64,000 bases of DNA from NCBI GenBank assembly GCA_963762115.1, contig CAVXJH010000003.1, positions 399,493 through 463,492 on the forward strand, read 5' to 3'. Both the position numbers and the translations under genes were made by a program. Source of the DNA: Candidatus Babeliales bacterium. Lineage in GTDB: Bacteria; Babelota; Babeliae; Babelales; JANWKD01. Numbering within the stretch: position 1 is the stretch's first letter; the number at the start of each line of letters is the position of its first letter. The notes beneath the pieces were generated by a model. It did not search any database and was not told the origin of the DNA. It was given only the letters and a program-made list of their open reading frames with translations. Positions 15,515 through 60,252 of this stretch are shown here, piece by piece.

Positions 15515-17131
15515 TTGAAAAAGCACTATAAAAAATATACCTGCAACCTCTTCATGGTCATTTTTCTAATAATAAGCATATTTTCAACACATGGCATGGA
15601 AGAACTAACTTCAAATAAAACCATTGAGGATTATTATGGCAACCTTTTTACGGGAGACGCTTCAACACTAGAAAAATGCGGCGATTTTTTTCAAACCATT
15701 AGTGATTTTGAAAATGACTCTGATAATGTTTCATTACTCCAAAGTATGAGACATCAAATAGTTCATGCATCTCCTGATGAAAAAACCATCGAAGACTATC
15801 ATGGCATCATTTTTACCGCGCCCGCTTCAACAATAGAAAAATGTGGCTTATTTCAAAACATTGGTGAATTTGAAGATGATTTTGATTTTAAGTCACCAGA
15901 TATTTGGAATCAATTATTTAGTAGAAGATTTCCTAAACGTGATATCAGTTTTTTTAAAGCAACGGCTGCTGACATACCTCTTTCAAAAGAAATTTTAAAA
16001 GCTGCCTTTGAATGCATCACACCTTTTTTTGAAAAAGCTGAATCCCCTGAAGACAAAAGAGAAAAAAGTGAAAAAATTCACGCTATGCTCGAGTCAATTT
16101 CAAAAGATCAGATGCGATCAATTTTTTCTGTCATTAATTATCTTGGCCCCCAAAAAGAAAAAGTAGCTAAAAAACTTGCTCAACAAATGAAAGCGATAAT
16201 TCCATCAAATGAATTAAAAGAAGAAAATGAAATTGATTTTATCATTTTATCGAAGCTATATGACAAATCTATAGGTACAATTATCAAAAAAAAAGAAGAA
16301 ACGGCATATTTCGATTCGCTAAAGCCTAAAGAACTTAATTTCCAAAAAATGAATATCGAATCCCTGCAAGGTATCGAACATATTAAAATTGATAAAAATA
16401 ACATTAGTACGTTACGTCTTAGTAACAATAAATTAACAACCTTAAATATTAAAAATCTTTTAGAAATATTTCCCAACCTTAAACATATCGATGCTGAGCA
16501 TAATCTAATTACAAAGGCTATTTTCCCTGAACAATTACCTGCCAATATAAAAATATTTTTGTATCAAAATTTTATTAAGGAACTAATGCCTTTTTATACA
16601 AATGATAAGAATAAAATAGACTTAAGAAATAATCCTTTATCTGCCGATGCTCATGAAAACATTAAAAAAGCCTTAATTCCACCGTTTTTTAAAAGAAACC
16701 GACATCATTTATATTTTTTTAAAGAAGCCTCTAAATCATTTTTATTTAATAGTTTAACTGGCGCAGGAATATCTACATGCTTTATTTGGGCACCTATAGG
16801 AATTATTCGATCTTACAAATCTGAATATCCGGCCCCAAATACAATTACACAATCTATACTTTTCCATATATTGTTAGGCACAGTAAGCCCATCGTTTTAC
16901 CTCTTTTTAAAAACAGAACAGCTTTTGGGATTCGGAAATTCACCTTCATCAGCACATAAACATTTTTTACAATTTGTTGATAAATATGCTCTTGCAAGCA
17001 GCTTAATTATAGGAACTACATCTATTGCTTGGAAACTTTATAAAAATGAATTAACTGAATACAAAAAACACAAATACGTTCCAACAGCAAAGATTTTTAC
17101 TGGTGACTTCGATGAAAGTGCAGGCATATGA
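15515..17131 (+). CDS. Exported Skp1/BTB-like + LRR + TM protein (paralog 1)
   Basis: Signal then GMEE; LRRs LRLSNNKLTTL, IDAEHNLIT, IDLRNNPLS; C-terminal hydrophobic helices; start may be ATG 15554. Confidence 0.75.
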   Translation: MKKHYKKYTCNLFMVIFLIISIFSTHGMEELTSNKTIEDYYGNLFTGDASTLEKCGDFFQTISDFENDSDNVSLLQSMRHQIVHASPDEKTIEDYHGIIFTAPASTIEKCGLFQNIGEFEDDFDFKSPDIWNQLFSRRFPKRDISFFKATAADIPLSKEILKAAFECITPFFEKAESPEDKREKSEKIHAMLESISKDQMRSIFSVINYLGPQKEKVAKKLAQQMKAIIPSNELKEENEIDFIILSKLYDKSIGTIIKKKEETAYFDSLKPKELNFQKMNIESLQGIEHIKIDKNNISTLRLSNNKLTTLNIKNLLEIFPNLKHIDAEHNLITKAIFPEQLPANIKIFLYQNFIKELMPFYTNDKNKIDLRNNPLSADAHENIKKALIPPFFKRNRHHLYFFKEASKSFLFNSLTGAGISTCFIWAPIGIIRSYKSEYPAPNTITQSILFHILLGTVSPSFYLFLKTEQLLGFGNSPSSAHKHFLQFVDKYALASSLIIGTTSIAWKLYKNELTEYKKHKYVPTAKIFTGDFDESAGI

Positions 17132-18567
17132 ATAAAAAAATTAGAATACTTCATTTTTTGATTCTAGTTTTTGCTTTAGCAAATATTTCGTTCTTACAAA
17201 GCATGAGACATCAAATAGTTCATGCATCTCCTGATGAAAAAATTATCGAAGATTATCATGGCACCATTTTTACCGTGCCTGCTTCAACAATAGAAAAGTG
17301 TGGTGGATTTTTTCAAACCCTTGCTGATTTTGATACCTTTTATTTTGAAACATCAGATATTTGGGATCAATTATTTAGTAGAAGATTTCCTAAAAGCGAT
17401 ATCAGTTTTTTTCAAACGAAGGCAGCAGATACCCCTCTTTCAAAAGAAATTTTAAAAGCTACCTTTGAATGCATCACACCATTTTTTGAAGAAGTTAAAT
17501 TACCTGAAGAAAAAAGTGAAAAAATTAAAGCGATAATCGAATCAATTGATAAGGATCACATTCGATCAATTTTTTCTGTAATAAATTATCTTGGCCCCCA
17601 AAAAGAAAAAGTAGCTAAAAAATTAGCTCAACGAATGAAAGCGATAATTCCATACGATGAATTAAAAGAAGATAATGAAATTGATGTTATTGTTTTATCG
17701 GGAATATATGATAAAACAATACAAAAACTCCTTAAAAGGAAAAATCAATGGGGATTTTATAACCAACGGGTAGCCCAAGCTTTAGAGCTTAAAGGAATGA
17801 AGCTTGACAACTTGAAAGGAATTGAAAAGATAACAATTGAAAGTGTTAGGCTATTATATCTTAACGATAATGCATTAAGAACACTTGATATTGCGTATCT
17901 AAAAAAAAAATTTCCAAAACTTACTTACATCAATGCAAGCAATAACTGCATTACCACTCTCATTCTTCCCTCTAAATTACAAGAGCGTTTAACCATCGAA
18001 CTTAAAAACAATTTAATTAAAGAACTGCCTACCTTTTCATTAGATGGTGATTGTACAATTAACCTAAAAGGTAATCCTTTATCAGAAGATGCCCATAAAA
18101 AAATTAGAAAAGCATTAACACCACCATTTTTTATAAAAAATAGGCATCATTTAATTTTTTGGGCAAATAACGCAGGATATTTAATACGCGGAGTATTCTT
18201 TGGTGGACTCATTGGAATGCCATTAGGAACATCACTAGCAACTCTCTATTATTGCCCACGTACAACAATAATAGCAGGTATAGCACTTGGCTTGAGCGCA
18301 TCCACTTCATCAACAATAGCCCAAGCCATTCCTTATTTTATGATTGCTCCTTACCTGGCAATAAGGCTTAATCTTGACCCTGAGTTTTCAAATCATTGTA
18401 CTGGCTTTGTACCATTTGTTCATAAATTTACTTTAGGAAGCAGTTTGGCCTTAGGATTTATTTCACTCATAAGTGAAACGAAAAATATTGCACGAGACTA
18501 TGAACGAAATAAATACATTCAACGAGCAAAAATTTTCACTGATGCCGATGATTCTGCAAAAAATTAA
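17128..18567 (+). CDS. Exported Skp1/BTB-like + LRR + TM protein (paralog 2)
   Basis: Tandem paralog of 15515; LYLNDNALRTL, INASNNCIT, INLKGNPLS. Confidence 0.75.
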   Translation: MNKKIRILHFLILVFALANISFLQSMRHQIVHASPDEKIIEDYHGTIFTVPASTIEKCGGFFQTLADFDTFYFETSDIWDQLFSRRFPKSDISFFQTKAADTPLSKEILKATFECITPFFEEVKLPEEKSEKIKAIIESIDKDHIRSIFSVINYLGPQKEKVAKKLAQRMKAIIPYDELKEDNEIDVIVLSGIYDKTIQKLLKRKNQWGFYNQRVAQALELKGMKLDNLKGIEKITIESVRLLYLNDNALRTLDIAYLKKKFPKLTYINASNNCITTLILPSKLQERLTIELKNNLIKELPTFSLDGDCTINLKGNPLSEDAHKKIRKALTPPFFIKNRHHLIFWANNAGYLIRGVFFGGLIGMPLGTSLATLYYCPRTTIIAGIALGLSASTSSTIAQAIPYFMIAPYLAIRLNLDPEFSNHCTGFVPFVHKFTLGSSLALGFISLISETKNIARDYERNKYIQRAKIFTDADDSAKN

Positions 18568-18584
18568 ACAATAAAATTCAGTTA

Positions 18585-20429
18585 TTATTCAACCGTAACC
18601 GATTTTGCTAAATTTCTAGGCTTATCAATAGGACAACCTAACTCTTTTGCAATTTGATAGACAAAGAATTGCATCAACCCCGTCATGGCCAATGGTGCAA
18701 GTAATCTGTGCACACGAGGAATGACAAAAAGCTGATCTGCCAACTGCATTAATTCTTCCTGCCCTTCAAAAGCAAAAATAACCAAATGCCCCTTGCGCGC
18801 TTTCACTTCTTGTGCATTTGAAACTAATTTAGGATACACAAGCGGATCTAAACTGGAAAATAAAAAGATGGGTGTTTCAGCATCAATCAAAGCAATTGGT
18901 CCATGTTTCAGTTCTCCGGCTGGATAACATTGCGCAAACATATACGAAATTTCTTTTAATTTTAACGCTGATTCCATAGCAAAAGGATAGCTAATATGCC
19001 GCCCCAAAAAAATACATTTTTTATACTGCGCATACCGTGCTGCCAAGGTGGAAATAATCTCAGCTTTATAATTTTCAATACTTATTTCTAATATTTGTGC
19101 TGCAACTAAAATATCACGACAGGCTTCATCCATGCTTGATGCTGGCAACAATCCCTTTTCTATGGCAATGCGATGAGCAAGCCAAAATAGGGTAACAATT
19201 TGTGTTGAAAATGCTTTGGTTGAAGCGACAGCGATTTCTTGACCGGCTTGCGTCACCAGGCAACCATGCGCTTCACGCGCAACGGTACTTGAAGCAACAT
19301 TAGTAATACCAATCGTTGGCAAACCATATGAATGCACCATACGTAATGCTTCAAGCGTATCGGCTGTTTCTCCTGATTGTGTAATGGCAATGTAAGCACC
19401 TTTATCATCAGGAAAAAATGACATTAAACGAAATTCAGATGCTAACGCTACTTTTGCTGGAATTTTAGTAATTTCTTCAAAAAAGAATTGAGCAATACGT
19501 GCCGCATGCCAAGAAGTACCACAACCAATCATAGTGAGCGAGGTAAGATTTTTAACCTGTTCAATCGTAAGGCCCAATTGCGACCAAAGATCATCACCAA
19601 GATTTTGCAGAGAAGCAATTGTTTTTTGAATAACACATTTCTGCTCATAAATTTCTTTAAGCATAAAATGATCAAATTCTTTTTTTCCACTATCAATCCA
19701 ACTTGTATCAACTTCTTGCACAATAACAGGAAGCGATTTACCAGAAAAATCATACAATTCCACTTCATCTTTTTTTAAAACTGCGTAGGATTTGTCAGGT
19801 AAAAAAACGACTCTATTTGTTTTGTCAGCAAATGCAAGCAAATCAGAAGAAACGAACATTTCATCATTGCCCATGCCAATGCAAAGTGGCGAACCACGAC
19901 GAGCAATCAATAATTGGTCGGGAAATTCTTGGGAAATACAGACAAGTGCATAAGCACCTTCAAGGCGATTAACTAAAGCATTTACGGCTTCTTTGAAAGA
20001 TTTTTTTTCAACGATAAGAGCTTCAAGGAGATGAGCAACAACTTCAGTATCTGTTTGTGACTCAAAACTATGCCCGCTTGCTAAAAGTTCTTGCTTGAGA
20101 GCACGATAATTTTCAATGATACCATTATGAGCAATTGAGATTTTTTTGTGACAATCAAATTGAGGATGGGCATTTTCTGTTGAAATGGCACCGTGAGTGG
20201 CCCATCGCGTGTGACCTATACCAAGATGCCCATCAATCGGTTCAGCATCTAAACACTGAATAAGATTAGCTAAATAGCCAGTTGTTTTATGATATAAAAT
20301 AGTATTATCATTACCACTTAAACAAGAAAAACCTGCTGAATCATAACCACGATATTCAAGACGAGATAAGCCTTGAATAACATAGCCTCTGCTCCAACCA
20401 TTTCCAATGTATCCTGCTAAACCACACAT
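18585..20429 (-). CDS. glmS: Glutamine--fructose-6-phosphate aminotransferase
   Basis: MCG N-terminus, LEYRGYDSAG, GHTRWATHG, PRNLAKSVTVE. Confidence 0.97.
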   Translation of the reverse strand: MCGLAGYIGNGWSRGYVIQGLSRLEYRGYDSAGFSCLSGNDNTILYHKTTGYLANLIQCLDAEPIDGHLGIGHTRWATHGAISTENAHPQFDCHKKISIAHNGIIENYRALKQELLASGHSFESQTDTEVVAHLLEALIVEKKSFKEAVNALVNRLEGAYALVCISQEFPDQLLIARRGSPLCIGMGNDEMFVSSDLLAFADKTNRVVFLPDKSYAVLKKDEVELYDFSGKSLPVIVQEVDTSWIDSGKKEFDHFMLKEIYEQKCVIQKTIASLQNLGDDLWSQLGLTIEQVKNLTSLTMIGCGTSWHAARIAQFFFEEITKIPAKVALASEFRLMSFFPDDKGAYIAITQSGETADTLEALRMVHSYGLPTIGITNVASSTVAREAHGCLVTQAGQEIAVASTKAFSTQIVTLFWLAHRIAIEKGLLPASSMDEACRDILVAAQILEISIENYKAEIISTLAARYAQYKKCIFLGRHISYPFAMESALKLKEISYMFAQCYPAGELKHGPIALIDAETPIFLFSSLDPLVYPKLVSNAQEVKARKGHLVIFAFEGQEELMQLADQLFVIPRVHRLLAPLAMTGLMQFFVYQIAKELGCPIDKPRNLAKSVTVE

Positions 20430-22120: not shown

Positions 22121-22562
22121 CTTAACATTTTAAGGAAATACGATGAATATTCAAAAAAACACTTTTATGTGGGCACTATTGATAGCTAACTTACTCTTTA
22201 ATATGCCAACTTTACTTAAAGCAGACATGCAAAACACTGAAGAAGCATTAAATAGCTTTGAAGAAACCTTGAACGCAGGCCACGAACAAACAAAATGCAT
22301 AATGGAGTGTTTTTATAAACATCAAAAAGAATCAGATAAAATGGAATGTACAATGTGTTCACAAGAATGTGAAATGGCATATTTAAAAAAAATTATAGCA
22401 ATTCAGAGAAAAAAAAATGAAGCTCTTCAGCAAAATAAATCTGATAAATCTAACTAACTTAACGTTTTAAGGAAATACGATGAATATTCAAAAAAACACT
22501 TTTATGTGGGCATTATTGGTAGCTAACTTGCTCTTTAATATGCCAACTTTACTTAAAGCAGA
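22121..22562 (+). repeat. 105-bp direct repeat (22121-22225 / 22458-22562) covering RBS + signal peptide
   Basis: 4 mismatches; identity stops at the predicted cleavage site. Confidence 0.9.
22143..22457 (+). CDS. Small exported protein with twin CX3C motifs (paralog 1)
   Basis: Signal peptide ...LLKA; CIMEC and CSQEC. Confidence 0.75.
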   Translation: MNIQKNTFMWALLIANLLFNMPTLLKADMQNTEEALNSFEETLNAGHEQTKCIMECFYKHQKESDKMECTMCSQECEMAYLKKIIAIQRKKNEALQQNKSDKSN

Positions 22563-22815
22563 AAATAAAGAAACAAAAGAATATGATGAGCTACACAGTT
22601 CACTTGAAGCATTAAAAAATGATATAAAGGCATGTAAAGATGTTTCAGGGGAACTAGAACTTGTACTGAGTGCACACTTAGAAAAAGCATTTTGCAATCT
22701 TGAATGCGCATCTAAAAAACAAGATAAAACAATATGCCAGAACAAATGTGAAGTTGAACATTTAAGAAAAATTGTACATTTTTGGCAAAATAAAGTTAAT
22801 AATTCTAACAAATAA
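22480..22815 (+). CDS. Small exported protein with twin CX3C motifs (paralog 2)
   Basis: Near-identical signal peptide; CNLEC and CQNKC. Confidence 0.75.
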   Translation: MNIQKNTFMWALLVANLLFNMPTLLKAENKETKEYDELHSSLEALKNDIKACKDVSGELELVLSAHLEKAFCNLECASKKQDKTICQNKCEVEHLRKIVHFWQNKVNNSNK

Positions 22816-23282: not shown

Positions 23283-24744
23283 CTACTCTTTACCCACATT
23301 TTTACTATAATTAACGAGATACAGAGTTAATATATCAAAAAAAGAAAAGTAAAAAATGATTAAAGAATTGTGGGCAGCAAATGAGACTAATCGTATGTCA
23401 TTAAAAGATAAACGCAGAAATGAAAGAGTTAGAATACTTCTAGAGGCCGTTGCCGATAGCCCATCAGCAAGCATTTTACAAGCTTGCAACGGAGAAAATG
23501 CACAAGCAAAAGGTGCTTATCGTTTTCTTGCCACAACAGAAATTGATGAACAAGATATTCTCGAAGGACATTATCAAGCAACCGTCGAAAGAGCTGAAAA
23601 TGCTGATGGAAAAGTCATTATTGTTAGCGATGGCATGGATGCATCTTTTAAAAATCTTAAAAAAACTTCAGGGTTAGGAACTCTATCTAATACAAAAAGT
23701 TCACTTGGAATAAAAGTTCAAAATACGTATGTATTTAGTGAAAATTTTATTCCATTAGGGCTAATAAATCAAAAGTATTGGATACGCAATAAAGAAGATT
23801 TTGGCAAAAAAAAACATAAGCTAAGGTTGCCTACAAAGGAAAAAGAATCTTATAATTGGATTGAATCAATTTATCAAATAGAAAAAAAGCTTCCTATAAA
23901 TAAAAGCTATTTATTTATAGGTGATGGTGGTGCCGATATTTATGATTTATTAACAGCAGAAAGGCGTGTAAATAGCGATTTACTCATTCATCTTGTGCAA
24001 AATAGAAATATACAGAACGAAGAAGAGCGTCTCTTTGAATTGCTGGAAAAACAATCAGTATTAGGCGTTATAACGAAAGAATTAGAACGTACAAAAACTC
24101 ATTCTAAGAGAACTGCAAAGTTAGCGATTAGAGTCAAAGAAGTCGAAATTTGTTCTCCTTTAAATCGAAAAAATGAAAAATTACCAACCATACATTTAAC
24201 AGCGATTTATGTGCAAGAAATAGAATATGACAACTCAGTAAATGATCCAATAGTATGGCGACTTATTACTACGATTAAAGTTCAATCATTGGAAGAAGCT
24301 GAAAAGCTTATTGCCCTTTACTCAAAACGTTGGCTCATTGAACGCTATCATTATATTTTAAAAGAAGGTTGTCGCATAGAAAAATTTCAAATGGAATCGG
24401 TTGATAACCTAAAAAGAACCTTGGCTGTTTACTCAATTGCTGCCTGGCGTTTAATTTATATCACTTATCTTGCAAGAATTAAACCTGATGCCCCATGTAA
24501 TTTAATTCTTACAACCGATGAAGCTGATGCGTTATATTGCACGCATCATAAAACTCTTACATTGCCCCCCAAATCTTTTTCTGTTAAAGAAGCAACTCAA
24601 ATGATAGCAAAATTAGGAGGTTTTCTTGGCAGGAAAAACGATAAAGATCCTGGTGCAAAAGTTTTGTGGCAGGGATTATTTCGGCTAGAAGCCATTACAC
24701 AAGCTTATCTTTTATTTAAAGAACTAAATGTGGGTAAAGAGTAG
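23283..24744 (+). mobile_element. IS4-family (IS50/Tn5-like) insertion sequence, 1462 bp
   Basis: Terminal IRs CTACTCTTTACCCACATTT; flanking direct repeat CATATACGCG at 23273-23282 and 24745-24754. Confidence 0.95.
23356..24744 (+). CDS. IS4 family (Tn5-like) DDE transposase
   Basis: DKRRNER, AYRFL, YSKRWLIERYHYILK (YREK), LGGFLGRKNDKDPG; stop codon lies in the right IR. Confidence 0.95.
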   Translation: MIKELWAANETNRMSLKDKRRNERVRILLEAVADSPSASILQACNGENAQAKGAYRFLATTEIDEQDILEGHYQATVERAENADGKVIIVSDGMDASFKNLKKTSGLGTLSNTKSSLGIKVQNTYVFSENFIPLGLINQKYWIRNKEDFGKKKHKLRLPTKEKESYNWIESIYQIEKKLPINKSYLFIGDGGADIYDLLTAERRVNSDLLIHLVQNRNIQNEEERLFELLEKQSVLGVITKELERTKTHSKRTAKLAIRVKEVEICSPLNRKNEKLPTIHLTAIYVQEIEYDNSVNDPIVWRLITTIKVQSLEEAEKLIALYSKRWLIERYHYILKEGCRIEKFQMESVDNLKRTLAVYSIAAWRLIYITYLARIKPDAPCNLILTTDEADALYCTHHKTLTLPPKSFSVKEATQMIAKLGGFLGRKNDKDPGAKVLWQGLFRLEAITQAYLLFKELNVGKE

Positions 24745-25098: not shown

Positions 25099-28115
<3,017 letters not shown>

Positions 28116-28248: not shown

Positions 28249-29208
28249 ATGAAATCACTATTTCTTAAAGGTTTAAACCTGTTATTTGCAGTTGCACTCT
28301 TTGCAACAATAAATACATATGCAATGGAACAACAAGAAGAAGTTGCAGAGCCTATTTCTGCTCAAGCGCAAACTGATAATGTTATTGAACGTATGTATAA
28401 TGCTTTTAGCAAACAACTTGATGAAAGATTTCCAGAAGCACCTACAAATTTTTATGAAGCAATTGTACGCCTTCAAAGCATTGCAAAATTACTTGAAAAA
28501 TCTGAGATTGAACTCTGTGAAAATTTCAACGCTACACAAGAAAGTTGTATAATAAATGGCATTGAACAACCATATCATATGCTTCATCCAATTTTTAAAC
28601 ATTGGTTTCAAAGCGCTTGCAACAAAACTCTTCTTGAACATACAAAATCTATTGAAGCAATTGATCTAATATTTGATTTATTAAGTAAAATAACAACAGA
28701 GAACAATATCGAAAATTACAAAAAAGCAATTGAATCTTTGCCCCATGTTATTGCTGAATATATCAAAGAAGAATTTATTGAAATGCATGGCTGGAAATAT
28801 AAAAATAAAGGCTGGCTGACTGACTTTAAACCTCAAATGACTTTTGATGATAATGAAAACATGATAAATGTCGAATTTATTAAAGATAATTATCATGTTC
28901 GTGGATATTATTTGAAAGCAATCGATCAACCAATAATCGTTGTAATTAATTTAAATAATGGAACATATCCCTATATGGCGTTTAACGCTCATGCAACATT
29001 ACCACCAATGCTTTCAGACCTTTTGAACAATTTTTTTCATATTCCATTACCAGAAAGCGGTGTTTACCCTCCACTTTGGGAAAAACCAACATTTGAACAA
29101 TCATTAAAAAATTGTATCCAAGAAAACGCTAAAACATTAATAGGAAAAATAAAAAGACAAATCCAATCAACATTTTATTCTTTTAGCGAATTTATGGATC
29201 GATTTTAA
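28249..29208 (+). CDS. Exported array protein 1
   Basis: Signal + AMEQ; family domain PTNFYEAIVRLQSIA...PYHMLHPIFKHWF. Confidence 0.8.
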   Translation: MKSLFLKGLNLLFAVALFATINTYAMEQQEEVAEPISAQAQTDNVIERMYNAFSKQLDERFPEAPTNFYEAIVRLQSIAKLLEKSEIELCENFNATQESCIINGIEQPYHMLHPIFKHWFQSACNKTLLEHTKSIEAIDLIFDLLSKITTENNIENYKKAIESLPHVIAEYIKEEFIEMHGWKYKNKGWLTDFKPQMTFDDNENMINVEFIKDNYHVRGYYLKAIDQPIIVVINLNNGTYPYMAFNAHATLPPMLSDLLNNFFHIPLPESGVYPPLWEKPTFEQSLKNCIQENAKTLIGKIKRQIQSTFYSFSEFMDRF

Positions 29209-29263
29209 TGAAACATAATAAAAAAACTCTTATTTTTTAATTAGAACGTAGAGGAATATGTAT

Positions 29264-30220
29264 ATGAAATCACTATTTTTTAAAAGGTTAACACCTTTAT
29301 TACTCACCGTTACACTCTTTGCAGCAATAAATATACAAGCAATGGAACAAGAAGAAGGACAAGAACCTTTTTCTGCTCAAGAACAAAGCGCCAATGCCGA
29401 TAATGTTGTTGAACGTATATATAATGCTTTTAGCAAACAACTTGACGAAAGATTCACAGAATCACCTACAAATTTTCGCGAAGCAATTGCACAACTCAGA
29501 TGTATTGCACGATTACTTGAAGAATCTGAAGTTGAACTTCTTGAAGATTTCAACGTTACACAAGAAAACTGCACAATACATGGTATTAAACAACCATATC
29601 ATATGCTTCATCCAATTTTTAAACATTGGTTCAAAAATGCTTACGAAAAAATCCTTCTTGAACATCCAAAAGTTATTGAAGCTGCTGATGTAATTCTTGA
29701 AAGATTAAGTGAAAATGTTTCTCATGAAAATATGAATAATTATGATAAAGCAATTACAAATCTGCCAAAAATTGTTACTGAATGCATCCAAGATCAATTC
29801 ATTGATATACATGGTTGGCCACACAATATAAAACCCTCAATCACATTCAATGATTCGGGAGTAAAGCACATTTCATTTCTTCAAGATAATTATGTTTTTG
29901 AAGGATTTGGAACTGGTTGGATACATAAAACACGGTCACAACAAAGTCATTTAGAAAATATCAATAATAATCCTTCAGCATGGCTTAGCCGCAGCTCTAC
30001 ATTGGTTGATGGAAAATTAGCAACAGGAATTGCATACGAATTAGGATTAGCTGAAGAAATAAACGGAGATATTAAACCATTAAAAGCCTCTAATGATAAA
30101 GAAGAACCAAGTGGTGTATTACCACCTCTTTGGGAAAAACCAACATTTAAAGAAGCTCTTAAAAAACGAGCTGAAGAAAATAAATTAAAGAAAAATAGAA
30201 ATAGATGTATTATAAGTTAA
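29264..30220 (+). CDS. Exported array protein 2, C-terminal CaaX (CIIS)
   Basis: Paralog of 28249; ends KLKKNRNRCIIS. Confidence 0.8.
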   Translation: MKSLFFKRLTPLLLTVTLFAAINIQAMEQEEGQEPFSAQEQSANADNVVERIYNAFSKQLDERFTESPTNFREAIAQLRCIARLLEESEVELLEDFNVTQENCTIHGIKQPYHMLHPIFKHWFKNAYEKILLEHPKVIEAADVILERLSENVSHENMNNYDKAITNLPKIVTECIQDQFIDIHGWPHNIKPSITFNDSGVKHISFLQDNYVFEGFGTGWIHKTRSQQSHLENINNNPSAWLSRSSTLVDGKLATGIAYELGLAEEINGDIKPLKASNDKEEPSGVLPPLWEKPTFKEALKKRAEENKLKKNRNRCIIS

Positions 30221-30263: not shown

Positions 30264-32132
30264 ATGAAATTATATATTAAACAGGGCAAAAAGGCCTTAT
30301 TACTTTCTCTCGTATTATTTACCGGAATCACACTCAATGCAATGGAACAACAAGATAAGCCTGAATATAGTTCTTTCGTTGATAATCTAGAGATAGTACT
30401 AAAAAGAAATAACAAACAACTCTGCGCAAAGCTTCTTCATCATTTCAATGAAGAAATTGAACAAAAAGAAGTAATTGAACAAGTTTCTATAGTTGCAAAT
30501 TTAATACCATATGCTGCACAAAAAAGTAATCAAGTAACCTCTGTACTTTGCAATGCACTGGTAAAAATTGTCCAGGCTAACGACTCATTAGCCTCAATAA
30601 TTAAAGAAAAGATAAATCCTGTTATTCACACTTTAGTAGCACACCAAAGAAAAAAGGCTTTAAAAAAACTTCTTTGTATATTTGCTGATAACACTGAATC
30701 GGAAGAATATACAAGGATTAATCAAATTATACAAAGTAAGTTACAAAAAGGATTAACCGTATTTAATCCAGAAGAAAATTCTACCACAAAAGAAGCACTA
30801 AAATATATTTATTCTACTATTGATTTGATACAAGAATCGATATCAAACCCACAACGCACAGTAATATTCTGCAATATGTTGCTAGGTCATTTTATTAGCC
30901 AAGAAAAAAATTTCAGAACAGACATGCAAAAAATTATTTCTCCAATCATTCATCCTCTAATTCAAGCTAATAACATTGAAGCATTAAAACAAATTCGATA
31001 TATTTTCTCTGATTTTAAAGATAAAGATACACAAGAATACAAAATCATACATAAAGCAATTAAAAAATATAATTCAGTAATAAAATCCAAGCAAAATGAA
31101 CAGCTTGCAAAATTATCAGAAAAAAGTCCTCATGAAAAAGTTGCAACTGAAGATAACGATCAAGAATTAAACTTTGCTCGCACTGTTAGTACAAGGGAAA
31201 CTACCAATCCAAGTGCGACTACTTTTGAAAATCCAATTGATTTTATGAGATTACAAAAGGAATCTGCTGAACTTACTGGTGTTCCGCTCTCAGATGAAGA
31301 AGCTGATGCATTTTTGATTAGAATTTTAGAAGAACACATCGACAATCACCCTTCTTGCAAGAAAATACCAAAAACATTTTATGAAGCTTTAGTGCGTCTT
31401 CAATGCATTGCTCGTTTGTTTGATAAAACTCGCTTTTATATAGGTGATATGGAAATTACAGAGAATGATTGTGTGATTAATAACTTAGTTCTTCCTCATC
31501 ATATGACAAATAAAAGATTTAAACAGTGTTTTGATATTGTCAAAAATCGAACCGTACTTCTTTCCCATGAAAAATCTGTTGAAGCAATAAATATCATTCT
31601 TGAAAGCATCAGTAAAAAAGTAAAACCAGAAACGGCAGCCGAATATATAAAAGCAATTAATTGTTTACCCTCTTTTTTTTCTCATAACATTAAAAAGCAA
31701 TTTAATAGAATGATGTATCAAGAATTATATAATATTCCTTTGATAACAACGGGTTTAAATTTTATTGGTTCGTTTGTTAATTATGACATAGTAAAAACCA
31801 AAATTAAACCTTATGAAGTTATCTTCGATGAAGAAGACAGGATAACATCATTCAAATTTAAAAAATCTGGAATTAACGTTGAAATATCTAACATACATTG
31901 GATAGGACAGGATCCTTGGGGTAAAGCAGTTATGGGAAGTGAAACATGTTATGGTACTGATCTAAACAATTTACACACTCTTCTAAATAGAAAATTTGAG
32001 GGACGAGCAACATATTTTGATGAAAACGACTTTATTTGGCGACTAAATTTTGAAGAAATGTTACAAAAACGTGCTCATGAAAATGAAAACAAGACACAAG
32101 AAAAGCAACAATCAAAATGCATTATAAGTTAG
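30264..32132 (+). CDS. Exported array protein 3, mosaic, C-terminal CaaX (CIIS)
   Basis: Two helical repeats shared with protein 4, plus the PKTFYEALVRLQCIA domain shared with proteins 1 and 2; ends QSKCIIS. Confidence 0.8.
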   Translation: MKLYIKQGKKALLLSLVLFTGITLNAMEQQDKPEYSSFVDNLEIVLKRNNKQLCAKLLHHFNEEIEQKEVIEQVSIVANLIPYAAQKSNQVTSVLCNALVKIVQANDSLASIIKEKINPVIHTLVAHQRKKALKKLLCIFADNTESEEYTRINQIIQSKLQKGLTVFNPEENSTTKEALKYIYSTIDLIQESISNPQRTVIFCNMLLGHFISQEKNFRTDMQKIISPIIHPLIQANNIEALKQIRYIFSDFKDKDTQEYKIIHKAIKKYNSVIKSKQNEQLAKLSEKSPHEKVATEDNDQELNFARTVSTRETTNPSATTFENPIDFMRLQKESAELTGVPLSDEEADAFLIRILEEHIDNHPSCKKIPKTFYEALVRLQCIARLFDKTRFYIGDMEITENDCVINNLVLPHHMTNKRFKQCFDIVKNRTVLLSHEKSVEAINIILESISKKVKPETAAEYIKAINCLPSFFSHNIKKQFNRMMYQELYNIPLITTGLNFIGSFVNYDIVKTKIKPYEVIFDEEDRITSFKFKKSGINVEISNIHWIGQDPWGKAVMGSETCYGTDLNNLHTLLNRKFEGRATYFDENDFIWRLNFEEMLQKRAHENENKTQEKQQSKCIIS

Positions 32133-32170: not shown

Positions 32171-33007
32171 ATGAAATTATTTATAAAACAAGGTAAAAAC
32201 ACCTTATTACTTTCTCTCGTATTATTTACCGGAATCACGCTTCAGGCAATGGAACAACAAGGGAGCGAATACGGCTATTTAGTTGATACTCTTGATGCAG
32301 CAATGAAATCATCAAATCCCACTGCTTGCAAAGATCTTTTCGAAAGCTTTAGTAATGATCTTAACCAAAAAGATCCAATCGAACGAGCTGCTATTGTTGT
32401 TGGCTTAACACAAGAAGCAGCAGCGAAAAAAAATGAACAATTAACAGGGGTATTTTGCAATGCACTCGTTAGTATTTATAACACTAGCCCCGGAATAACA
32501 GAAGCAATGCAAGAAATAATAAGCCCTGTCATTCGTCCTTTGGCAGAGCACAAACAAATATCAGCATTGGGAAAAATTCACTGTATTTTTTCTAACAATA
32601 TTGAAAGCGAAGAATATAGACAAATTGATGAAGCAATTAAAAATAAATTGCACGGTAATACAACAGTAAATACTGATGAAGATGAAGCAATTGCAAGATT
32701 ATTACAAGAAGAAGTTCAAAGTCCTGATGACAATTTTGCACCTAAAGATAACGATCTCAACAGGGCACTAGCATTAAGTTTACAAACAGGCAGACAAGAT
32801 GACGAACAAGCAGAATTAGAAAAAGCACTGCGTGCAAGCAGATTTACCAACCCTAGCGCACCCGTACTAACAGACATCGAAGAAGATGATGCAGTATTAC
32901 GTATTGCACTCGCAGAAAGCTTACAAGTAAACACACCAAATACCAACTCAAATCCAAGCATCTGGAACAATCTCCGCAACATATTTTTAGACGGCTTTGG
33001 TAGTTAA
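32171..33007 (+). CDS. Exported array protein 4 with tandem ubiquitin-interacting motifs
   Basis: Start at ATG 32171 by homology with 30264; DLNRALALSL, ELEKALRASR, VLRIALAESL. Confidence 0.8.
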   Translation: MKLFIKQGKNTLLLSLVLFTGITLQAMEQQGSEYGYLVDTLDAAMKSSNPTACKDLFESFSNDLNQKDPIERAAIVVGLTQEAAAKKNEQLTGVFCNALVSIYNTSPGITEAMQEIISPVIRPLAEHKQISALGKIHCIFSNNIESEEYRQIDEAIKNKLHGNTTVNTDEDEAIARLLQEEVQSPDDNFAPKDNDLNRALALSLQTGRQDDEQAELEKALRASRFTNPSAPVLTDIEEDDAVLRIALAESLQVNTPNTNSNPSIWNNLRNIFLDGFGS

Positions 33008-54208: not shown

Positions 54209-55390
54209 TTAACAGATAACACGAACAACTTCTTCCAAGCTAATTATGCCGGCTTGTAGTTTTTCTCGTGCATCATGCAATAAAGGCTGCAAACCATCAG
54301 CAAGTGCCTGTTCTTGAATCGCCTCAAAAAGAGGATTGCGCACAATAAGTGTACGTAACGCGTTACTCATAATTAACAATTCAAAAATACCAATGCGCCC
54401 TTTATACCCAAGATTAAAACAGTGTGAACAGCCAAGACCTTTATAGAGTTTTTGCATATTCACCGCCAATCGTTCTAGTATTTTTAATTCTTGCTCATTT
54501 GGTTCTTGTTCAACACGACAATGTGTACAAATCTTGCGCACTAAACGTTGGGCAAGAACACCTGTCAATGAACTATTAATCAAGAATGGTTCAATGGCCA
54601 TATCCATTAAGCGCATAATGGTAGATGATGCATCATTGGTATGCAATGTGCTTAACACCAAGTGACCAGTTAGCGATGCTTCAATAGCAATACGCGCTGT
54701 TTGCTTATCACGAATTTCACCAATCATGGCAATATCAGGATCTTGTCGCAATAATGCGCGAATACCTCGTTCAAAAGTAAATCCTGCTTCAGGATGAATT
54801 TGGCCCTGCGTTATACCATCAATGTTATATTCAACAGGATCTTCTAGCGTGATAATATTTTTTTCAGCAGAATGTAATGCTGATAGCGTTGCATATAAGG
54901 TAGTCGTTTTTCCTGAACCGGTTGGCCCCGTTACTAAAAAAAATCCCTGCGCGCGAGCAATAAGATTTTTAAATTGTTCTAATATTTTTGGTTGTAACCC
55001 TAATTTTTCTAAAACAATAGTGTGATTTGTGCGATCCAAAATTCTAATAACTATTTTTTCGCCATAAATTGCAGGAAAGGTGGAAACGCGCAAATCAACC
55101 GATTTATCAGCAAGTTGTATGCGAAATTTTCCATCCTGAGGAATTCTTTTTTCTGCAATGTTGTTGTGAGCAAGAATCTTAATGCGCGAAATCACTTGTG
55201 CCGCACTCATTGCTTCTATCATGGGCTGATCATAAAGAGTACCATCAATGCGATAGCGAACCCTCAATCCCTTTTGCGTTGATTCTAAATGAATATCAGA
55301 TGCATCACGTTCAATTGCTAACGCAATAATATCATTAACACGATCAATAATTGATAAGGCAATAAAAGCTTGATTTTCGCGCTCCAACAT
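54209..55390 (-). CDS. GspE/PilB-family secretion/pilus ATPase lacking the N1 domain
   Basis: ASDIH, PQDG, TGPTGSGKTTT, EDPVE, LRQDPD, TGHLVLSTLH, tetra-Cys zinc site. Confidence 0.92.
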   Translation of the reverse strand: MLERENQAFIALSIIDRVNDIIALAIERDASDIHLESTQKGLRVRYRIDGTLYDQPMIEAMSAAQVISRIKILAHNNIAEKRIPQDGKFRIQLADKSVDLRVSTFPAIYGEKIVIRILDRTNHTIVLEKLGLQPKILEQFKNLIARAQGFFLVTGPTGSGKTTTLYATLSALHSAEKNIITLEDPVEYNIDGITQGQIHPEAGFTFERGIRALLRQDPDIAMIGEIRDKQTARIAIEASLTGHLVLSTLHTNDASSTIMRLMDMAIEPFLINSSLTGVLAQRLVRKICTHCRVEQEPNEQELKILERLAVNMQKLYKGLGCSHCFNLGYKGRIGIFELLIMSNALRTLIVRNPLFEAIQEQALADGLQPLLHDAREKLQAGIISLEEVVRVIC

Positions 55391-55398
55391 ACTCTTTT

Positions 55399-55950
55399 TT
55401 ACTCTTCTTCTTTATCAAGCTCTATTTCTTCTTGCGCCAGAGCTCGTGCTTCATCGCGCTCTTCTGCTTCAATATAATCAAAATCATCAGTCACTTGTAA
55501 AGAAGGATCATAAAATTCTTCTACCGTTTCTATAATATCTTCACCAATACCAACCATAAATTGAATATCGGACGACATATAATTACCAATATTAGGCAAC
55601 AATGAATCATCTTGCGGATCGGCAGCAACAACGACAAGCATGTTGTCATTCAATTCTTGCAAAGGAATAATTTCATTGCGAAGCAAAAAATCGCGAGGAA
55701 ATTTAATAACCAATGAATGATCAAAAAAATGACCTATCACATCAAATGATGGCACATTATAATAGGCACTTAATGCTTTTAATAAATCTTCTTTTTCAAC
55801 AAGTTCTTCCTGCAATAAAAAATTATCAAATTCATCTTCCGATTCTGCTTTAAATAATCTTTTTGCATCCTTTGATTCTTGAGGAGTAAAAACCTTATTT
55901 TTTTCTAAGATTGTACAAAGTCCGTCGACAAATTTATCGCCTTTTCTCAT
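55399..55950 (-). CDS. Stand-alone GspE/PilB N-terminal (T2SSE_N/MshEN-like) domain protein
   Basis: LLKALSAYYNVPSFD, FPRDFLLRNEIIPL, LVVVAADP. Confidence 0.75.
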   Translation of the reverse strand: MRKGDKFVDGLCTILEKNKVFTPQESKDAKRLFKAESEDEFDNFLLQEELVEKEDLLKALSAYYNVPSFDVIGHFFDHSLVIKFPRDFLLRNEIIPLQELNDNMLVVVAADPQDDSLLPNIGNYMSSDIQFMVGIGEDIIETVEEFYDPSLQVTDDFDYIEAEERDEARALAQEEIELDKEEE

Positions 55951-56490: not shown

Positions 56491-56504
56491 TTTTAAATTA
56501 CTAA

Positions 56505-56982: not shown

Positions 56983-57017
56983 AAGCAATTTTTTCAATTT
57001 TTTAAATTTTCAATTTC

Positions 57018-57091: not shown

Positions 57092-57119
57092 CTCTTTTTT
57101 TATTGATAATATAACAGTT

Positions 57120-57641
57120 TTATCCTTTAACCGCAAATTCTTCTAACTTTTTCTTTAATTCTTCTACAGAAATAGTTACTACGGCAGGTTCTCCATCATT
57201 TTTTTGTTCTGTCATACCAGGTGATTTTTCAAAATCTTTTAAATAAATTTCTTTGCAAGGACCTTCAACGGCAATACCCACGTGCATCGCTTCTGCCGTA
57301 CCACCTTCATAAGCAAATACATTTTTGAAGCCTAATGTATGCAACATCTGCCATCCTGCAGCGCTTGCGGTACATTTATAATTTGTACAATGTATTACAA
57401 TTTCAGTTGCATCTTTATCCCAATGAGATTGCGCATATGATTCAAGATTCTCAAATGGTATGTTGATTGAACCTTTTATATGACAATCATCATAAAATTC
57501 TTTATCTAATACGTTCACAAGAACGAATGCTGGCTTAACAGCTTCTTGAGTTTCTTTTTGTTCAAATAAGCGGCATGATGACACTAATGCAAGAGTACCA
57601 CAAACAATGCTCAATATTTGTATGTTTTTTATAAAATTCAT
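57120..57641 (-). CDS. Rhodanese-like domain lipoprotein
   Basis: Lipobox VSSC; HIKGSINIP, HCTNYKC, YEGG. Confidence 0.8.
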   Translation of the reverse strand: MNFIKNIQILSIVCGTLALVSSCRLFEQKETQEAVKPAFVLVNVLDKEFYDDCHIKGSINIPFENLESYAQSHWDKDATEIVIHCTNYKCTASAAGWQMLHTLGFKNVFAYEGGTAEAMHVGIAVEGPCKEIYLKDFEKSPGMTEQKNDGEPAVVTISVEELKKKLEEFAVKG

Positions 57642-57734
57642 TTTTTCCTTTCATTGTAGTTGTAACAATTTTTTATATTTCGATCTTCTAGATAAACGTT
57701 ATTTTTTCGTCTTAACCTCCATTTTTACTATTAT

Positions 57735-58208
57735 CTACTGTTTCGGATTACTCTTTTCTAAAATTTGATTAATAAATAGAAAATAAGTATGAACTTCGCC
57801 TATTATAATTTGAGCAATTTCTTCTCGATAAATATGTGATGTCAAATTTCTTTGCTCAATCATTTCTTGCGCTAGGTCACTTTCTTTTTCATTCAATAAA
57901 CCTATTTTAGCACACATTCTCATAATATTTTTAGGGCTACTAACATCAATACTTACACCTTGTATTTCTTCAAGATATACTTTGAGATATTTCCAAAGCA
58001 AATCAACAGAATATTCAAATCGTTGAATGACTGAATCTCGCAACCCTAAAACTACCTTATGCATATTAAGCTCAAGAAAATTACTTCCCGATAATTCCTG
58101 TTCTTTTTGAAGCAACAATATTTTATCAAATAAATCTATAGCTTCTTTAAAACTATTCACCGCTTGCATCAAGGTTTCATACTTTAATATTACTTTTTCT
58201 CGCTCCAT
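57735..58208 (-). CDS. HEPN-domain protein (HI0074 family), putative RNase toxin
   Basis: IQRFEYS..LLWK, RNLTSHIY (RX4H). Confidence 0.88.
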   Translation of the reverse strand: MEREKVILKYETLMQAVNSFKEAIDLFDKILLLQKEQELSGSNFLELNMHKVVLGLRDSVIQRFEYSVDLLWKYLKVYLEEIQGVSIDVSSPKNIMRMCAKIGLLNEKESDLAQEMIEQRNLTSHIYREEIAQIIIGEVHTYFLFINQILEKSNPKQ

Positions 58209-58477
58209 ATTATTCCATCTTTCTTTATCTGAATCTTCATTTTTTCTGATACCGCATGCAAATCAACAACATCAACAAATACTGGCAATAAAGAATCTTC
58301 CAAATCACTCATAATCAATAATATTTTCTTATGATCAATTTTGACAAGATCATCAAGAGCAATATCAAAATCAGCACCCTCTCGATTAGTTTTTCGAGCA
58401 CGAGAACCAAATAAATAAATTTTACATGTTGGAATATGCTTATGAACAATATCAATTATTATTTTTTTATAATCCAT
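58190..58477 (-). CDS. Minimal nucleotidyltransferase (MNT) antitoxin
   Basis: YLFGSRAR...DFDIA, VDVVD; overlaps the HEPN gene. Confidence 0.9.
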   Translation of the reverse strand: MDYKKIIIDIVHKHIPTCKIYLFGSRARKTNREGADFDIALDDLVKIDHKKILLIMSDLEDSLLPVFVDVVDLHAVSEKMKIQIKKDGIIWSEKK

Positions 58478-58483
58478 ACTAAT

Positions 58484-59356
58484 TTAATAAACCCATTGAA
58501 AAAACCTACTCCAACGAACACGTTGCCAAAAATCAATTGGATGTTTGATTAAATCAAGAATCCACCATGATTCATGGCTATCAATTGACCACAAGCGCAC
58601 AATAATTTTGCCATGAATCAATTTACCGTCAAGTGGTCCCCAAAAACGCGAATCATAGCTTCCCAACCGATTATCACCCATCGCCCAATATTGATTTGAA
58701 TCCAACGTGATATCAAAAATATCAACATTCCTACCATATTGATCAAAGGAGGGAGTTTGAGGTAACCGTAACCAATCTTGATCATATGTCTTTGACCAAC
58801 GCTTCCCAAGCTCAACGTCATACTCATCCATTCGATAAAAAGGCTGATCATTAAATGAAAAATTTTCATCGTAGGAAGAATGCAATAGGCATTTATTATT
58901 ATAAACAGCAATAAGAGGATATTTATTTAAATAAGGTTCATCTAATTTTTCCCCATTACGATAAATAACCGGCTTTCCATCTTCAATTACTCCTTTAATA
59001 TGATCACCAGGAAGACCAATCACTCGTTTAGTCCAATTAGAAGGTCCCCAAACATAACGTTGAAAAACGTCCGTAAAATAGTTATGAGAATAATTAAAAT
59101 TGGGATCATTAAAAGTAATAATATCGCCATACTTGATTGGTCGAAATAAATATGAAAATTTATCAGCAAAAAAACGTTCACCAACTAACATGGTTGTTTC
59201 CATTGAACCCGTTGGCACTTGATACAGACCATAAAAATAAGTGCGAATAAAAAAGGCAATTGGCACAATAATAAGAAAAGATTCTATATATTGAGCAATT
59301 TTTGATTTATGAGGACGTTTAAGCCAAACACGAAACTTATTAATAAATTCTAACAT
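58484..59356 (-). CDS. lepB: Signal peptidase I (paralog 2)
   Basis: VPTGSM (Ser), TKRVIGLPGD (Lys), MGDNR..SYDSRFWG. Confidence 0.93.
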   Translation of the reverse strand: MLEFINKFRVWLKRPHKSKIAQYIESFLIIVPIAFFIRTYFYGLYQVPTGSMETTMLVGERFFADKFSYLFRPIKYGDIITFNDPNFNYSHNYFTDVFQRYVWGPSNWTKRVIGLPGDHIKGVIEDGKPVIYRNGEKLDEPYLNKYPLIAVYNNKCLLHSSYDENFSFNDQPFYRMDEYDVELGKRWSKTYDQDWLRLPQTPSFDQYGRNVDIFDITLDSNQYWAMGDNRLGSYDSRFWGPLDGKLIHGKIIVRLWSIDSHESWWILDLIKHPIDFWQRVRWSRFFQWVY

Positions 59357-59379
59357 TGTTTTCTTTCGTTATATATGAT

Positions 59380-60252
59380 TCAAGATACTCTTTGAAGAAA
59401 CCGATTCCATCGAATACGTTTCCAAAAATCAAGGGGATGTTTGATCAAATCAAAAATAAGCCATGATTCATTGCTATCAATTGACCATATTCTAAAGACA
59501 ATCTTTCCATGTATCAATTTACCATCAAATGGACCAAGAAATCGTGAATCTTTGCTTCCCAGTCGATTATCACCCATACACCAATATTGATTTGGCGCCA
59601 AGTGAACATCAAAAATATCAACATTTCTTCCATAGTGATCAAACGAAGGCGTTCCCGGCATTAATAACCATTCTTGGCCATACATATCTGACCAACGTTT
59701 TCCTAATTCCGCCTCATAGTCATTAAAACTATAAAATGGTTGATCACTATATGAATAAGCTGGGTCATAAGAACGTGGCGCTTGGATGCGATTATTTTTA
59801 TATAACGTAATAAGAGGAAATTTGTTTAAATATGGTTCATCTAATTTTACATCATTGCGATATACAACCGGTTTTCCATCTTCAATAACGCCTCTAATAT
59901 GATCACCTGGAATACCAATAACACGCTTTGTCCAATTAGTAGGACCCCATACATAGCGCTGAAACAAATCAACCCAATAATTATCAGAATATATAAAAGT
60001 AGGATCATTAAGAGCAATAATATCGCCATGCTTTATTGGTATAAATAAGGGCGTAAATTTATCTGAAAAAAAACCCTCCCCAACCAATATCGTTGTTTCC
60101 ATTGAACCCGTCGGTACTTTATAAAGTCCATAACCAACCGTTCTAATAAGAAATGCAATCGGCAAAATAATAATGAAGGTTTCAAGATATTCTGCAACGA
60201 TAGATTTATTCGGTCGTTTTCGCCATTGATGAAATTTTTGAACGAGTGTCAT
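59380..60252 (-). CDS. lepB: Signal peptidase I (paralog 1)
   Basis: VPTGSM, TKRVIGIPGD, MGDNR..SKDSRFLG. Confidence 0.93.
   Translation of the reverse strand: MTLVQKFHQWRKRPNKSIVAEYLETFIIILPIAFLIRTVGYGLYKVPTGSMETTILVGEGFFSDKFTPLFIPIKHGDIIALNDPTFIYSDNYWVDLFQRYVWGPTNWTKRVIGIPGDHIRGVIEDGKPVVYRNDVKLDEPYLNKFPLITLYKNNRIQAPRSYDPAYSYSDQPFYSFNDYEAELGKRWSDMYGQEWLLMPGTPSFDHYGRNVDIFDVHLAPNQYWCMGDNRLGSKDSRFLGPFDGKLIHGKIVFRIWSIDSNESWLIFDLIKHPLDFWKRIRWNRFLQRVS

Follow-up and report, generated by a model that had tools for sequence, protein, structure and literature searches.

The analysed stretch, hereafter the window, comprises 64,000 nucleotides (G000:C3:399493-463492) of the genome of a Candidatus Babeliales bacterium (G000; 1.53 Mb, 34% G+C, seven contigs). 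It encodes a series of exported proteins with different cargo, whose signal peptides end with a small residue followed by Met and, in most cases, Glu or Asp; we refer to this mark, with Met at position +1 of the predicted mature protein, as the Met-Glu tag. The sequence-only reading that preceded this study had listed eleven signal peptides ending with a small residue and Met-Glu or Met-Asp, together with one Met-Arg variant, and all of them are indeed present in the translations. According to a cleavage-site matrix that is blind to the +1 residue, the best site lies immediately before the Met in 12 out of 12 cases, 10 of the 11 Met-Glu/Met-Asp cases (all but 52397) having been part of the training set of this matrix. 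The tagged genes of the window are as follows (the hyphen marks the predicted cleavage site; ORF, open reading frame; SAM, S-adenosylmethionine).

15515-17131, plus strand: tagged protein, STHG-MEE; matrix score 12.9; no Pfam family; hydrophobic segments at the C-terminus
17128-18567, plus strand: variant tagged protein, FLQS-MRH; matrix score 12.9; leucine-rich repeats, weak LRR_4 match below the cut-off (E 2.7e-4)
27522-28115, minus strand: tagged orphan, PLIC-MEE; matrix site before Met; no Pfam family
28249-29208, plus strand: tagged orphan, NTYA-MEQ; matrix site before Met; paralogue of the next two genes (29258, 30264)
29258-30220, plus strand: tagged protein, NIQA-MEQ; basic stretch, then CIIS at the end, a CaaX-like prenylation box
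30264-32132, plus strand: tagged protein, TLNA-MEQ; basic run, then CIIS at the end, CaaX-like
32171-33007, plus strand: tagged protein, TLQA-MEQ; start 18 codons into ORF 32117; UIM-like repeats, weak UIM matches just below the cut-off (E 4e-4)
38410-39933, plus strand: tagged WD40/beta-propeller-like protein, SIFG-MEE (Pfam, matrix)
43992-44492, plus strand: tagged acidic orphan, GLFA-MEN (translation, matrix)
46688-48466, plus strand: tagged beta-propeller-like protein, STHT-MEL (weak Pfam match, matrix)
48500-49375, plus strand: tagged SAM methyltransferase, SSLG-MEQ (Pfam, matrix; homologous structure 2p35_A)
52397-52855, minus strand: tagged small protein, ESFS-MDE; matrix score 8.9 before MDE; real start 25 or 35 codons into the listed ORF, which overlaps sufC unless the start is placed inside it

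The first two genes of the list are related in an unusual way. About 73 residues into its product, 15515-17131 holds the old junction LQS-MRHQIVHASPDEK of the downstream paralogue 17128-18567, preceded by an extra copy of the following module of ~45 residues and by a new signal peptide ending with MEE. This internal LQS junction looks like a former cleavage site buried via N-terminal duplication.

The tag is not confined to the window. The G000 gene set consisted of 1,409 ORFs from our own ORF caller, and signal peptides were called by a home-made heuristic and the home-made matrix, in place of SignalP. The heuristic is lenient (it asks for a start of net positive charge and then for 10-32 uncharged residues in a row that contain a strongly hydrophobic core, membrane anchors being included); the matrix spans positions -13 to -1, carries no +1 information, and was trained on the tagged class, that is, on the genome-wide Met-Glu/Met-Asp set. 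About 700 of the ~1,409 genes have signal-peptide-like N-termini by the lenient heuristic, and past the hydrophobic stretch the first charge is part of Met-Glu in 124 and of Met-Asp in 18 of these 700, the next commonest dipeptide occurring in 29 cases and the background frequencies of Met-Glu and Met-Asp being 0.5% and 0.4%, respectively. The suggested enrichment over background was borne out genome-wide by the matrix and the logo: Met occupies position +1 in 181 out of 420 matrix-passing signal peptides, compared with the overall Met frequency of 1.84% (binomial p ~2e-193). Combining both definitions, we classified 207 proteins as tagged and 225 as untagged; the tagged class of ~200 proteins constitutes 13-15% of the proteome.

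Position +2 is restricted as well. The residue following Met(+1) is Glu (113 cases), Gln (23), Asp (13), or Asn (13) in 162 out of 181 proteins, whereas the same set follows internal Met with the background frequency of 0.21. Hydrophobic, small, and basic residues are found at +2 in one, four, and 14 out of 181 proteins, the respective background frequencies after internal Met being 0.35, 0.29, and 0.15. Tagged genes also form a tandem array of fourteen (G000:C6:347396-361607, locus L253), all of them tagged and most having nearly identical signal peptides; +2 varies between Gln, Glu, and His in this array, and some of the paralogues show weak matches to C2H2 zinc fingers.

Cleavage site, signal peptidases and translation start

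In the logo of 142 Met-Glu and Met-Asp cases, position -1 is occupied by Ala (65), Gly (35), Ser (22), Cys (13), or Thr (5), 140 cases in total, and position -3 by Leu (49), Ser (24), Ile (18), Val (12), or Ala (12), 115 cases in total; positions -22 to -16 are rich in Lys, and positions -15 to -8, in Leu, Phe, and Ile. The Met is residue 16-36 of the precursor (mode 23), the median length of the signal peptides is 22 residues, and the charge of the n-region is +2. The +1-blind matrix chooses the site before the Met in 124 out of 143 cases. Thus, the motif sits at the canonical -3/-1 site of signal peptidase I (SPase I), as had been supposed, and the tagged signal peptides are predicted to be of the ordinary Sec/SPase I type, cleaved at the bond before the Met.

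Tagged and untagged signal peptides are alike in length (p 0.65), hydrophobicity (p 0.36), and charge (p 1.0), and hence a distinct type of signal peptide for the tagged proteins was dropped. Other types were considered and rejected: a lipoprotein signal (SPase II), since the +1 residue is Met rather than the lipobox Cys; a Tat signal, since two consecutive arginines followed, after one residue, by two hydrophobic residues were found in just two out of 207 tagged proteins; and a type IV prepilin signal, since the hydrophobic segment precedes the Met and positions +1 to +20 are hydrophilic (mean hydropathy -0.85), with Glu at +5 in 29 out of 207.

Two genes of signal peptidase I (LepB) lie in tandem in the window.

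58484-59356, minus strand: signal peptidase I, copy B; Peptidase_S26 (E 2e-36); Ser, Lys, and GDNR boxes kept
59380-60252, minus strand: signal peptidase I, copy A; Peptidase_S26 (E 2.5e-29); in tandem with copy B; orthologous pair in G001 of the same genus

As had been noted from the sequence, both copies are intact: they match the S26 family above the Pfam cut-off and retain the catalytic boxes. A further suggestion was that one of them may be specialised for this class; it would cut only sites of the form small residue-Met-Glu, and the tag would exist to match the enzyme. This would agree with the presence of the two intact tandem copies in both G000 and G001, and with the fact that the genomes with the clearest tag in the sampled stretches (G000, G001, G003, G004, G022, G037) have two copies. 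Nevertheless, the copies of the window are 69% identical, and their catalytic boxes (GSM, KR-x-x-G-x-PGD, GDNR-x-x-S-x-DSR) are almost the same; the two classes of protein also agree in positions -3 and -1 and in their signal-peptide properties. In a tree built from 34 LepB sequences, duplicate copies from one lineage cluster together, with independent duplications in at least seven lineages, namely g1 (G000, G001), g3 (G003, G004), g19 (G020, G037), G022, G024, G026, and G028; hence the duplication is recurrent rather than an old split common to the tag-bearing genomes, and an ancient Met-Glu-specific LepB was rejected. Moreover, the tag and the copy number are not coupled, as G024 with three copies and G007 with two show no tag in the sampled stretches, whereas G014 has a single copy, yet Met at +1 in three out of 19 signal peptides. 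Taking all this into account, we consider a specialised peptidase improbable and do not retain the suggestion. The two copies are explained more simply by dosage, given that roughly half of the genes (701 out of 1,407) encode a signal-peptide-like N-terminus.

The Met could also be the true or an alternative translation start, yielding isoforms with no signal peptide, the upstream stretch being untranslated or translated only sometimes; the sequence-only reading had itself named this possibility as one that would overturn it. Every tagged gene has an in-frame ATG at this point, and a clear Shine-Dalgarno site is seen in only about a third of genes, so that initiation with no such site is possible. 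On the other hand, a Shine-Dalgarno-like site 5-18 bases before the start of the signal peptide was found in 80 out of 207 tagged genes (39%), compared with 113 out of 336 cytoplasmic and 81 out of 225 untagged genes, whereas only one of the 207 internal Met codons is preceded by such a site, fewer than among random internal ATGs (67 out of 2,251, or 3%). A G-rich peak at -11 to -8 is seen at the upstream start only. The upstream parts themselves are rich in Lys and Arg at the start, uniform in length (mode 22), and end with a small residue in 140 out of 142 cases, and they are in frame and hydrophobic in homologues too. As Shine-Dalgarno-like sites precede the upstream start and not the internal Met, the former is, by sequence analysis, the real one, and an internal start appears very improbable.

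One orthologue deserves mention with regard to start codons. The counterpart of the tagged gene G000:C5:23212 in G001 (locus L030, ~12160) has an in-frame signal peptide ending with LAA-MEE, and no ATG, GTG, or TTG start. The explanation that this gene has no signal peptide was rejected, because the signal peptide is conserved in frame; translation may begin at a less common codon, for instance ATT.

Selection on the Met and cargo of the tagged class

Single-linkage clustering of the mature parts placed the 207 tagged proteins in 146 clusters, of which 131 are singletons. Across the clusters, the signal peptides are 15% identical over the last 16 residues, identity of at least 60% being observed in only two out of 20,983 pairs, and a signal-peptide cassette spread by recombination was therefore ruled out. 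Thus, with 146 clusters and unshared signal peptides, the tag has spread neither via a common cassette nor by a single expansion.

In order to assess selection, we paired G000 tagged proteins with homologues from 400-kb samples of G001 (same genus) and G003 (same family), using each protein once and anchoring the pairs at the predicted cleavage sites; this anchoring replaced BLAST alignments spanning the site, which were too few (16 pairs). Among the 18 tagged pairs obtained, which include paralogues and have mean identity of 31%, the +1 residue is identical in 15 and the +2 residue in eight, whereas each of positions +3 to +12 is identical in one to three. In two of the three +1 mismatches, Met-Glu is found three or four residues downstream of the site chosen by the matrix. 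In untagged pairs the +1 residue is identical in three out of 37 (Fisher p 9e-11 for the comparison with tagged pairs). Judging from these pairs, Met(+1) is under purifying selection.

Structures of homologues give a clue to where the Met came from. One tagged J-domain protein has its Met at residue 24, and its residue 28 is matched to residue 3-4 of DnaJ-type chains; in the methyltransferase of the window (48500) the Met is residue 19, and residues 24-195 align with residues 5-171 of trans-aconitate methyltransferase 2p35_A. Hence, in both cases Met(+1) is at most one or two residues away (about one in the methyltransferase) from where homologues with no signal peptide begin. Because of this coincidence, we infer that cytosolic-type proteins acquired a signal peptide immediately before their initiator codon, and that the Met is this ancestral initiator; new effectors may arise in this way, by a signal peptide joined to the start codon of a cytosolic-type protein.

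The same coincidence would be expected if the Met were a neutral scar, i.e., a leftover start codon with no present function that remained after the 5' extension of the gene had produced a signal peptide, and AT-rich upstream DNA might readily encode the necessary Lys/Asn and Phe/Leu/Ile stretches. However, the conservation of the Met in 15 out of 18 pairs, at 31% identity and next to poorly conserved neighbours, largely refutes this explanation. Further, only 7.4% of cytoplasmic proteins start with Met-Glu or Met-Asp, compared with 126 out of 181 tagged proteins, and hydrophobic and small residues are almost absent from +2. A neutral leftover start codon is therefore inadequate, and we regard it as highly improbable.

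The cargo was characterised by a Pfam scan (E 1e-4 or better) of 186 of the 207 tagged and 103 of the 225 untagged proteins. Among the 186 tagged proteins, 21 contain ankyrin repeats, 12 WD40/beta-propellers, four J-domains, and three weak C2H2 zinc fingers; one protein each was assigned to Skp1/POZ, SAM methyltransferase, PvcA-like, AAA ATPase, FAD oxidoreductase, beta-eliminating lyase, thymidylate-synthase-like, CPT-like kinase, and BamA; and 137 have no Pfam family. Of the 103 scanned untagged proteins, 43 have a family, and 23 are envelope or membrane proteins by manual reading (e.g., BamA-type Omp85, HtrA, FKBP, Amidase_3, DsbD, thioredoxin, AhpC, BatD, and also ExbB/TolQ, FtsW, M48, S8, GH3, PGA_cap, PASTA, FtsH-like); ankyrin repeats occur in three and WD40 in none.

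The proposed division between effector-like and housekeeping cargo is thus supported by both comparisons: envelope families account for one out of 186 tagged and 22 out of 103 untagged proteins (Fisher p 5e-10), and ankyrin and WD40 proteins combined, for 33 out of 186 and three out of 103, respectively (Fisher p 1e-4). The one clear housekeeping exception among the tagged proteins is BamA (G000:C6:250950-253418, locus L272; five POTRA domains and Omp85), which carries LFA-MQ, its G014 orthologue having LAA-MQ. Strict CaaX ends, often after a basic run, were found in 10 out of 207 tagged proteins, one out of 225 untagged, and five out of 975 others, two of the latter five having Met-Asp or Met-Glu directly after a signal peptide that had escaped the heuristic. 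To our knowledge, prenylation boxes are used in the eukaryotic cytosol only, and therefore their concentration in tagged proteins points to the host cytosol as the predicted destination.

The window contains untagged proteins for comparison. Its envelope proteins had been described as lacking the tag, which agrees with the ordinary cleavage sites seen in all three.

11653-13161, plus strand: untagged CtpA-type S41 peptidase, ordinary site
41232-41813, plus strand: untagged FKBP isomerase, LLLA-TGC; ordinary signal peptide or lipobox
61931-63715, minus strand: untagged BatD, NVFA-RTD

Several other features of the window and the genome were observed. Two tandem small Cys-rich paralogues (22143-22457 and 22480-22815) have nearly identical signal peptides and are untagged. 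Two eukaryote-type lysophospholipases (PLA2_B; 4184-6226 of the window and G000:C6:132518-134503) have signal-peptide-like N-termini with no Met tag, the second passing the matrix and the window copy scoring 6.5, below the cut-off. The suf genes do not form one block: three genes on the opposite strand, namely the tagged 46688 and 48500 and a GH1 glycosidase, lie between SufD (45672-46613) on one side and SufB (51018-52379) and SufC (52827-53555) on the other. The Tn5-like transposase encoded at 23356-24744 is intact and has its DNA-binding, DDE, and dimerisation domains.

Predicted export route and proposed role of the N-terminus in the host

Sequence analysis by itself shows that the tag is real, class-specific, and under selection; the readings of its function considered below go beyond this and are predictions.

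As the signal peptides of tagged and untagged proteins are alike, both classes likely share a common export route. Beyond the inner membrane, G000 has two secretins elsewhere in the genome and, in the window, an ATPase of the type II secretion system (T2SS) family.

54209-55950, minus strand: T2SSE-type secretion ATPase (E 2e-129) and MshEN N-domain (E 5.5e-11), two adjacent separate ORFs

FHIPEP (type III secretion) and VirB4 (type IV secretion) had no match in G000, whose completeness is 95%. Two large secretin genes ~5 kb apart (G000:C6:205033-211191 and its counterparts) are found in 41 out of 41 genomes of the order, and hence a lineage-specific secretin tied to the tag was dropped. Signal peptides, two secretins, and a T2SSE ATPase are present in G000; release of the tagged proteins as T2SS substrates is a prediction, and the ATPase at 54209-55950 might power the secretin pathway by which they would leave the cell.

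The distribution of the tag was assessed in relatives. A phylum-level draw gave only genomes of the same order (0.8-1.9 Mb), represented by sampled stretches, which outside the family of G000 (f1) were only 80-120 kb long. In f1, Met at +1 was found in 37 out of 100 matrix-passing signal peptides of G001, 33 out of 108 of G003, and six out of 15 of G004. In other families the counts were six out of 27 (G037, f17), four out of 27 (G022, f19), three out of 19 (G014, f11, and G033, f12), two out of 18 (G020, f17), two out of 19 (G008, f5), one out of 17 (G016, f13), and none in G007 (f4, of seven), G024 (f21, of 14), G038 (f18, of 13), and G006 (f3, of seven). Hence, the tag is found across the order and is strongest in f1. 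The four zero genomes double as negative controls for the calling method; since the samples are short and tagged genes cluster, low counts outside f1 are weak evidence of absence.

One possible role of the tag is periplasmic sorting: the free Met-Glu N-terminus would be read after the LepB cut and would route the protein to the paired T2SS-type secretins, untagged proteins staying in the envelope. In favour of sorting, effector-like proteins of the Sec secretome are set apart from housekeeping ones by the tag, selection acts on Met(+1), and of the three secretion markers searched, secretins were found, and FHIPEP and VirB4 were not; a T2SSE ATPase lies in the window, and T2SS is reported as the only system found in Babela (PMC4378268). 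Further, the tag is the only feature common to 146 clusters and would explain how their members are told from envelope proteins; because these clusters are unrelated and fast-evolving, a shared folded signal is unlikely. Against sorting, the paired secretins are present in all 41 genomes, including those with tag-free samples, and thus no machine co-varies with the tag at this level; the tagged BamA must remain in the outer membrane; the specificity of the receptor would match the eukaryotic rules considered below by coincidence; and no candidate receptor turned up, although no systematic search was made. Altogether, we consider sorting less likely than not, although it is the main rival of the reading favoured below.

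Its strongest form, in which Met-Glu is a true linear export signal and an N-recognin-like periplasmic receptor hands ~200 unrelated effectors to the paired secretins, seems to us unlikely. If true, secretin/T2SS-type secretion would for the first time have a targeting code that is simple and can be transplanted. It touches the open question of how bacteria with Sec and secretins only choose the periplasmic proteins to be sent into the host.

We tentatively favour another reading, while giving it somewhat less than an even chance: the ancestral start Met would be retained because it leaves the cleaved effector with an N-terminus tolerated in the host cytosol. The tagged proteins would be exported by Sec, cut by LepB, released through the conserved secretin pathway of the order, and would act inside the host, in its cytosol. 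Sec export is known to be hindered by basic residues that closely follow the signal peptide. In eukaryotes, Met-aminopeptidases remove Met before small residues only, and basic, bulky hydrophobic, acidic, and amide residues are destabilising at the N-terminus (PMC11441550), while substrates of NatB begin with Met followed by Glu, Asp, Gln, or Asn (PMC8553619). The +2 set seen here, with hydrophobic and small residues nearly absent, is what these rules in combination predict. With a large residue at +2 that is neither hydrophobic nor basic, the Met would be neither trimmed by Met-aminopeptidase nor recognised as an Arg/N-degron, and the new N-terminus would resemble a native eukaryotic N-terminus of the NatB type. 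The NatB resemblance had been proposed from the window, and genome-wide the four residues found at +2 in 162 out of 181 proteins coincide exactly, as a match in sequence, with the NatB substrate set (PMC8553619). Most single-base mutants of the ATG (Leu, Ile, Lys, Arg, that is, four out of six reachable amino acids) would be destabilising at the N-terminus, and as these are primary destabilising residues, the Met could be frozen in place. There is also a precedent: a Sec-cleaved bacterial enzyme with the mature start Met-Asn, whose activity in the host cell obeys the N-end rule (PMC3755998).

A number of points weigh against the reading of a host-tolerated N-terminus. The cleavage site, the destination, and acetylation are all predicted. 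NatB is described as a co-translational enzyme (PMC8553619), and therefore it is uncertain whether an imported protein would be acetylated. Residues such as Ala, Ser, Gly, or Val at +1 would be stabilising too, so the rule alone does not demand Met, nor does N-degron logic predict the predominance of Glu at +2 (113 cases, compared with 13 Asp, 23 Gln, and 13 Asn). The three untagged ankyrin proteins among the 103 scanned have other predicted +1 residues (His and Asn in the two matched), and BamA of the outer membrane carries A-MQ in both G000 and G014. The tag was not seen in the samples of G007, G024, G038, and G006 (none of 41 matrix-passing signal peptides). The predictor is home-made, its matrix being trained on the tagged class, and the Pfam scan covers 103 of the 225 untagged proteins.

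The host-side role and a periplasmic export tag are compatible rather than exclusive. They constitute two hypotheses testable with reporters, one of an export code and the other of an N-terminus tuned to the eukaryotic N-degron, Met-aminopeptidase, and NatB rules.

Comparison with known systems

Like known Sec/SPase I signal peptides, those of the tagged class have a basic n-region, a hydrophobic core, and a small residue at both -1 and -3; the genome also encodes LepB enzymes. In model bacteria, the +1 residue is mostly Ala and rarely Met, whereas the tagged class has Met at +1 (181 out of 420) and Glu, Gln, Asp, or Asn at +2.

Short motifs that become N-terminal upon cleavage and direct further sorting are known, e.g., the lipoprotein export signal of Bacteroidota, the +1 Phe of diatom and cryptophyte plastid presequences, and the PEXEL motif of Plasmodium. 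Like the tag, they are very short, are located at or next to the cleavage site, and decide the next destination, and the tag may act in the same way; they differ in that they act on lipoproteins or in eukaryotic secretory pathways. We know of no equivalent for soluble proteins in bacteria, and of no linear signal for T2SS-type export.

The closest organisms for comparison are the Dependentiae Babela massiliensis and Chromulinavorax destructans, which likewise have small AT-rich genomes and very many proteins with signal peptides, most of the ankyrin proteins among them, a secretin/T2SS-type system being the only one found (PMC4378268; PMC6561590). A term search of these two papers, their supplementary tables aside, gave no mention of the +1/+2 motif (PMC4378268; PMC6561590). 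Nor did the literature searched, the supplementary files of the same papers aside, contain any description of the Met-Glu tag, and thus this two-residue mark seems not to have been described before. It provides a one-line rule for listing candidate effectors of these uncultured protist parasites.

As to eukaryotic N-termini, the +2 set of the tag (Glu, Asp, Gln, Asn) is that of NatB-type N-termini (PMC8553619), and, in line with the N-degron rules, the tag avoids Met followed by hydrophobic residues and those +2 residues that permit the action of Met-aminopeptidase (PMC11441550). Unlike these N-termini, that of a tagged protein is predicted to be made by a bacterial signal peptidase and not by translation start. 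A functional parallel is the anthrax edema factor with its mature Met-Asn, whose activity in the host cytosol depends on the residue that becomes N-terminal once the signal peptide is removed (PMC3755998); the edema factor, however, is one protein with its own delivery component, whereas the tag is proteome-wide and spans 146 unrelated clusters.

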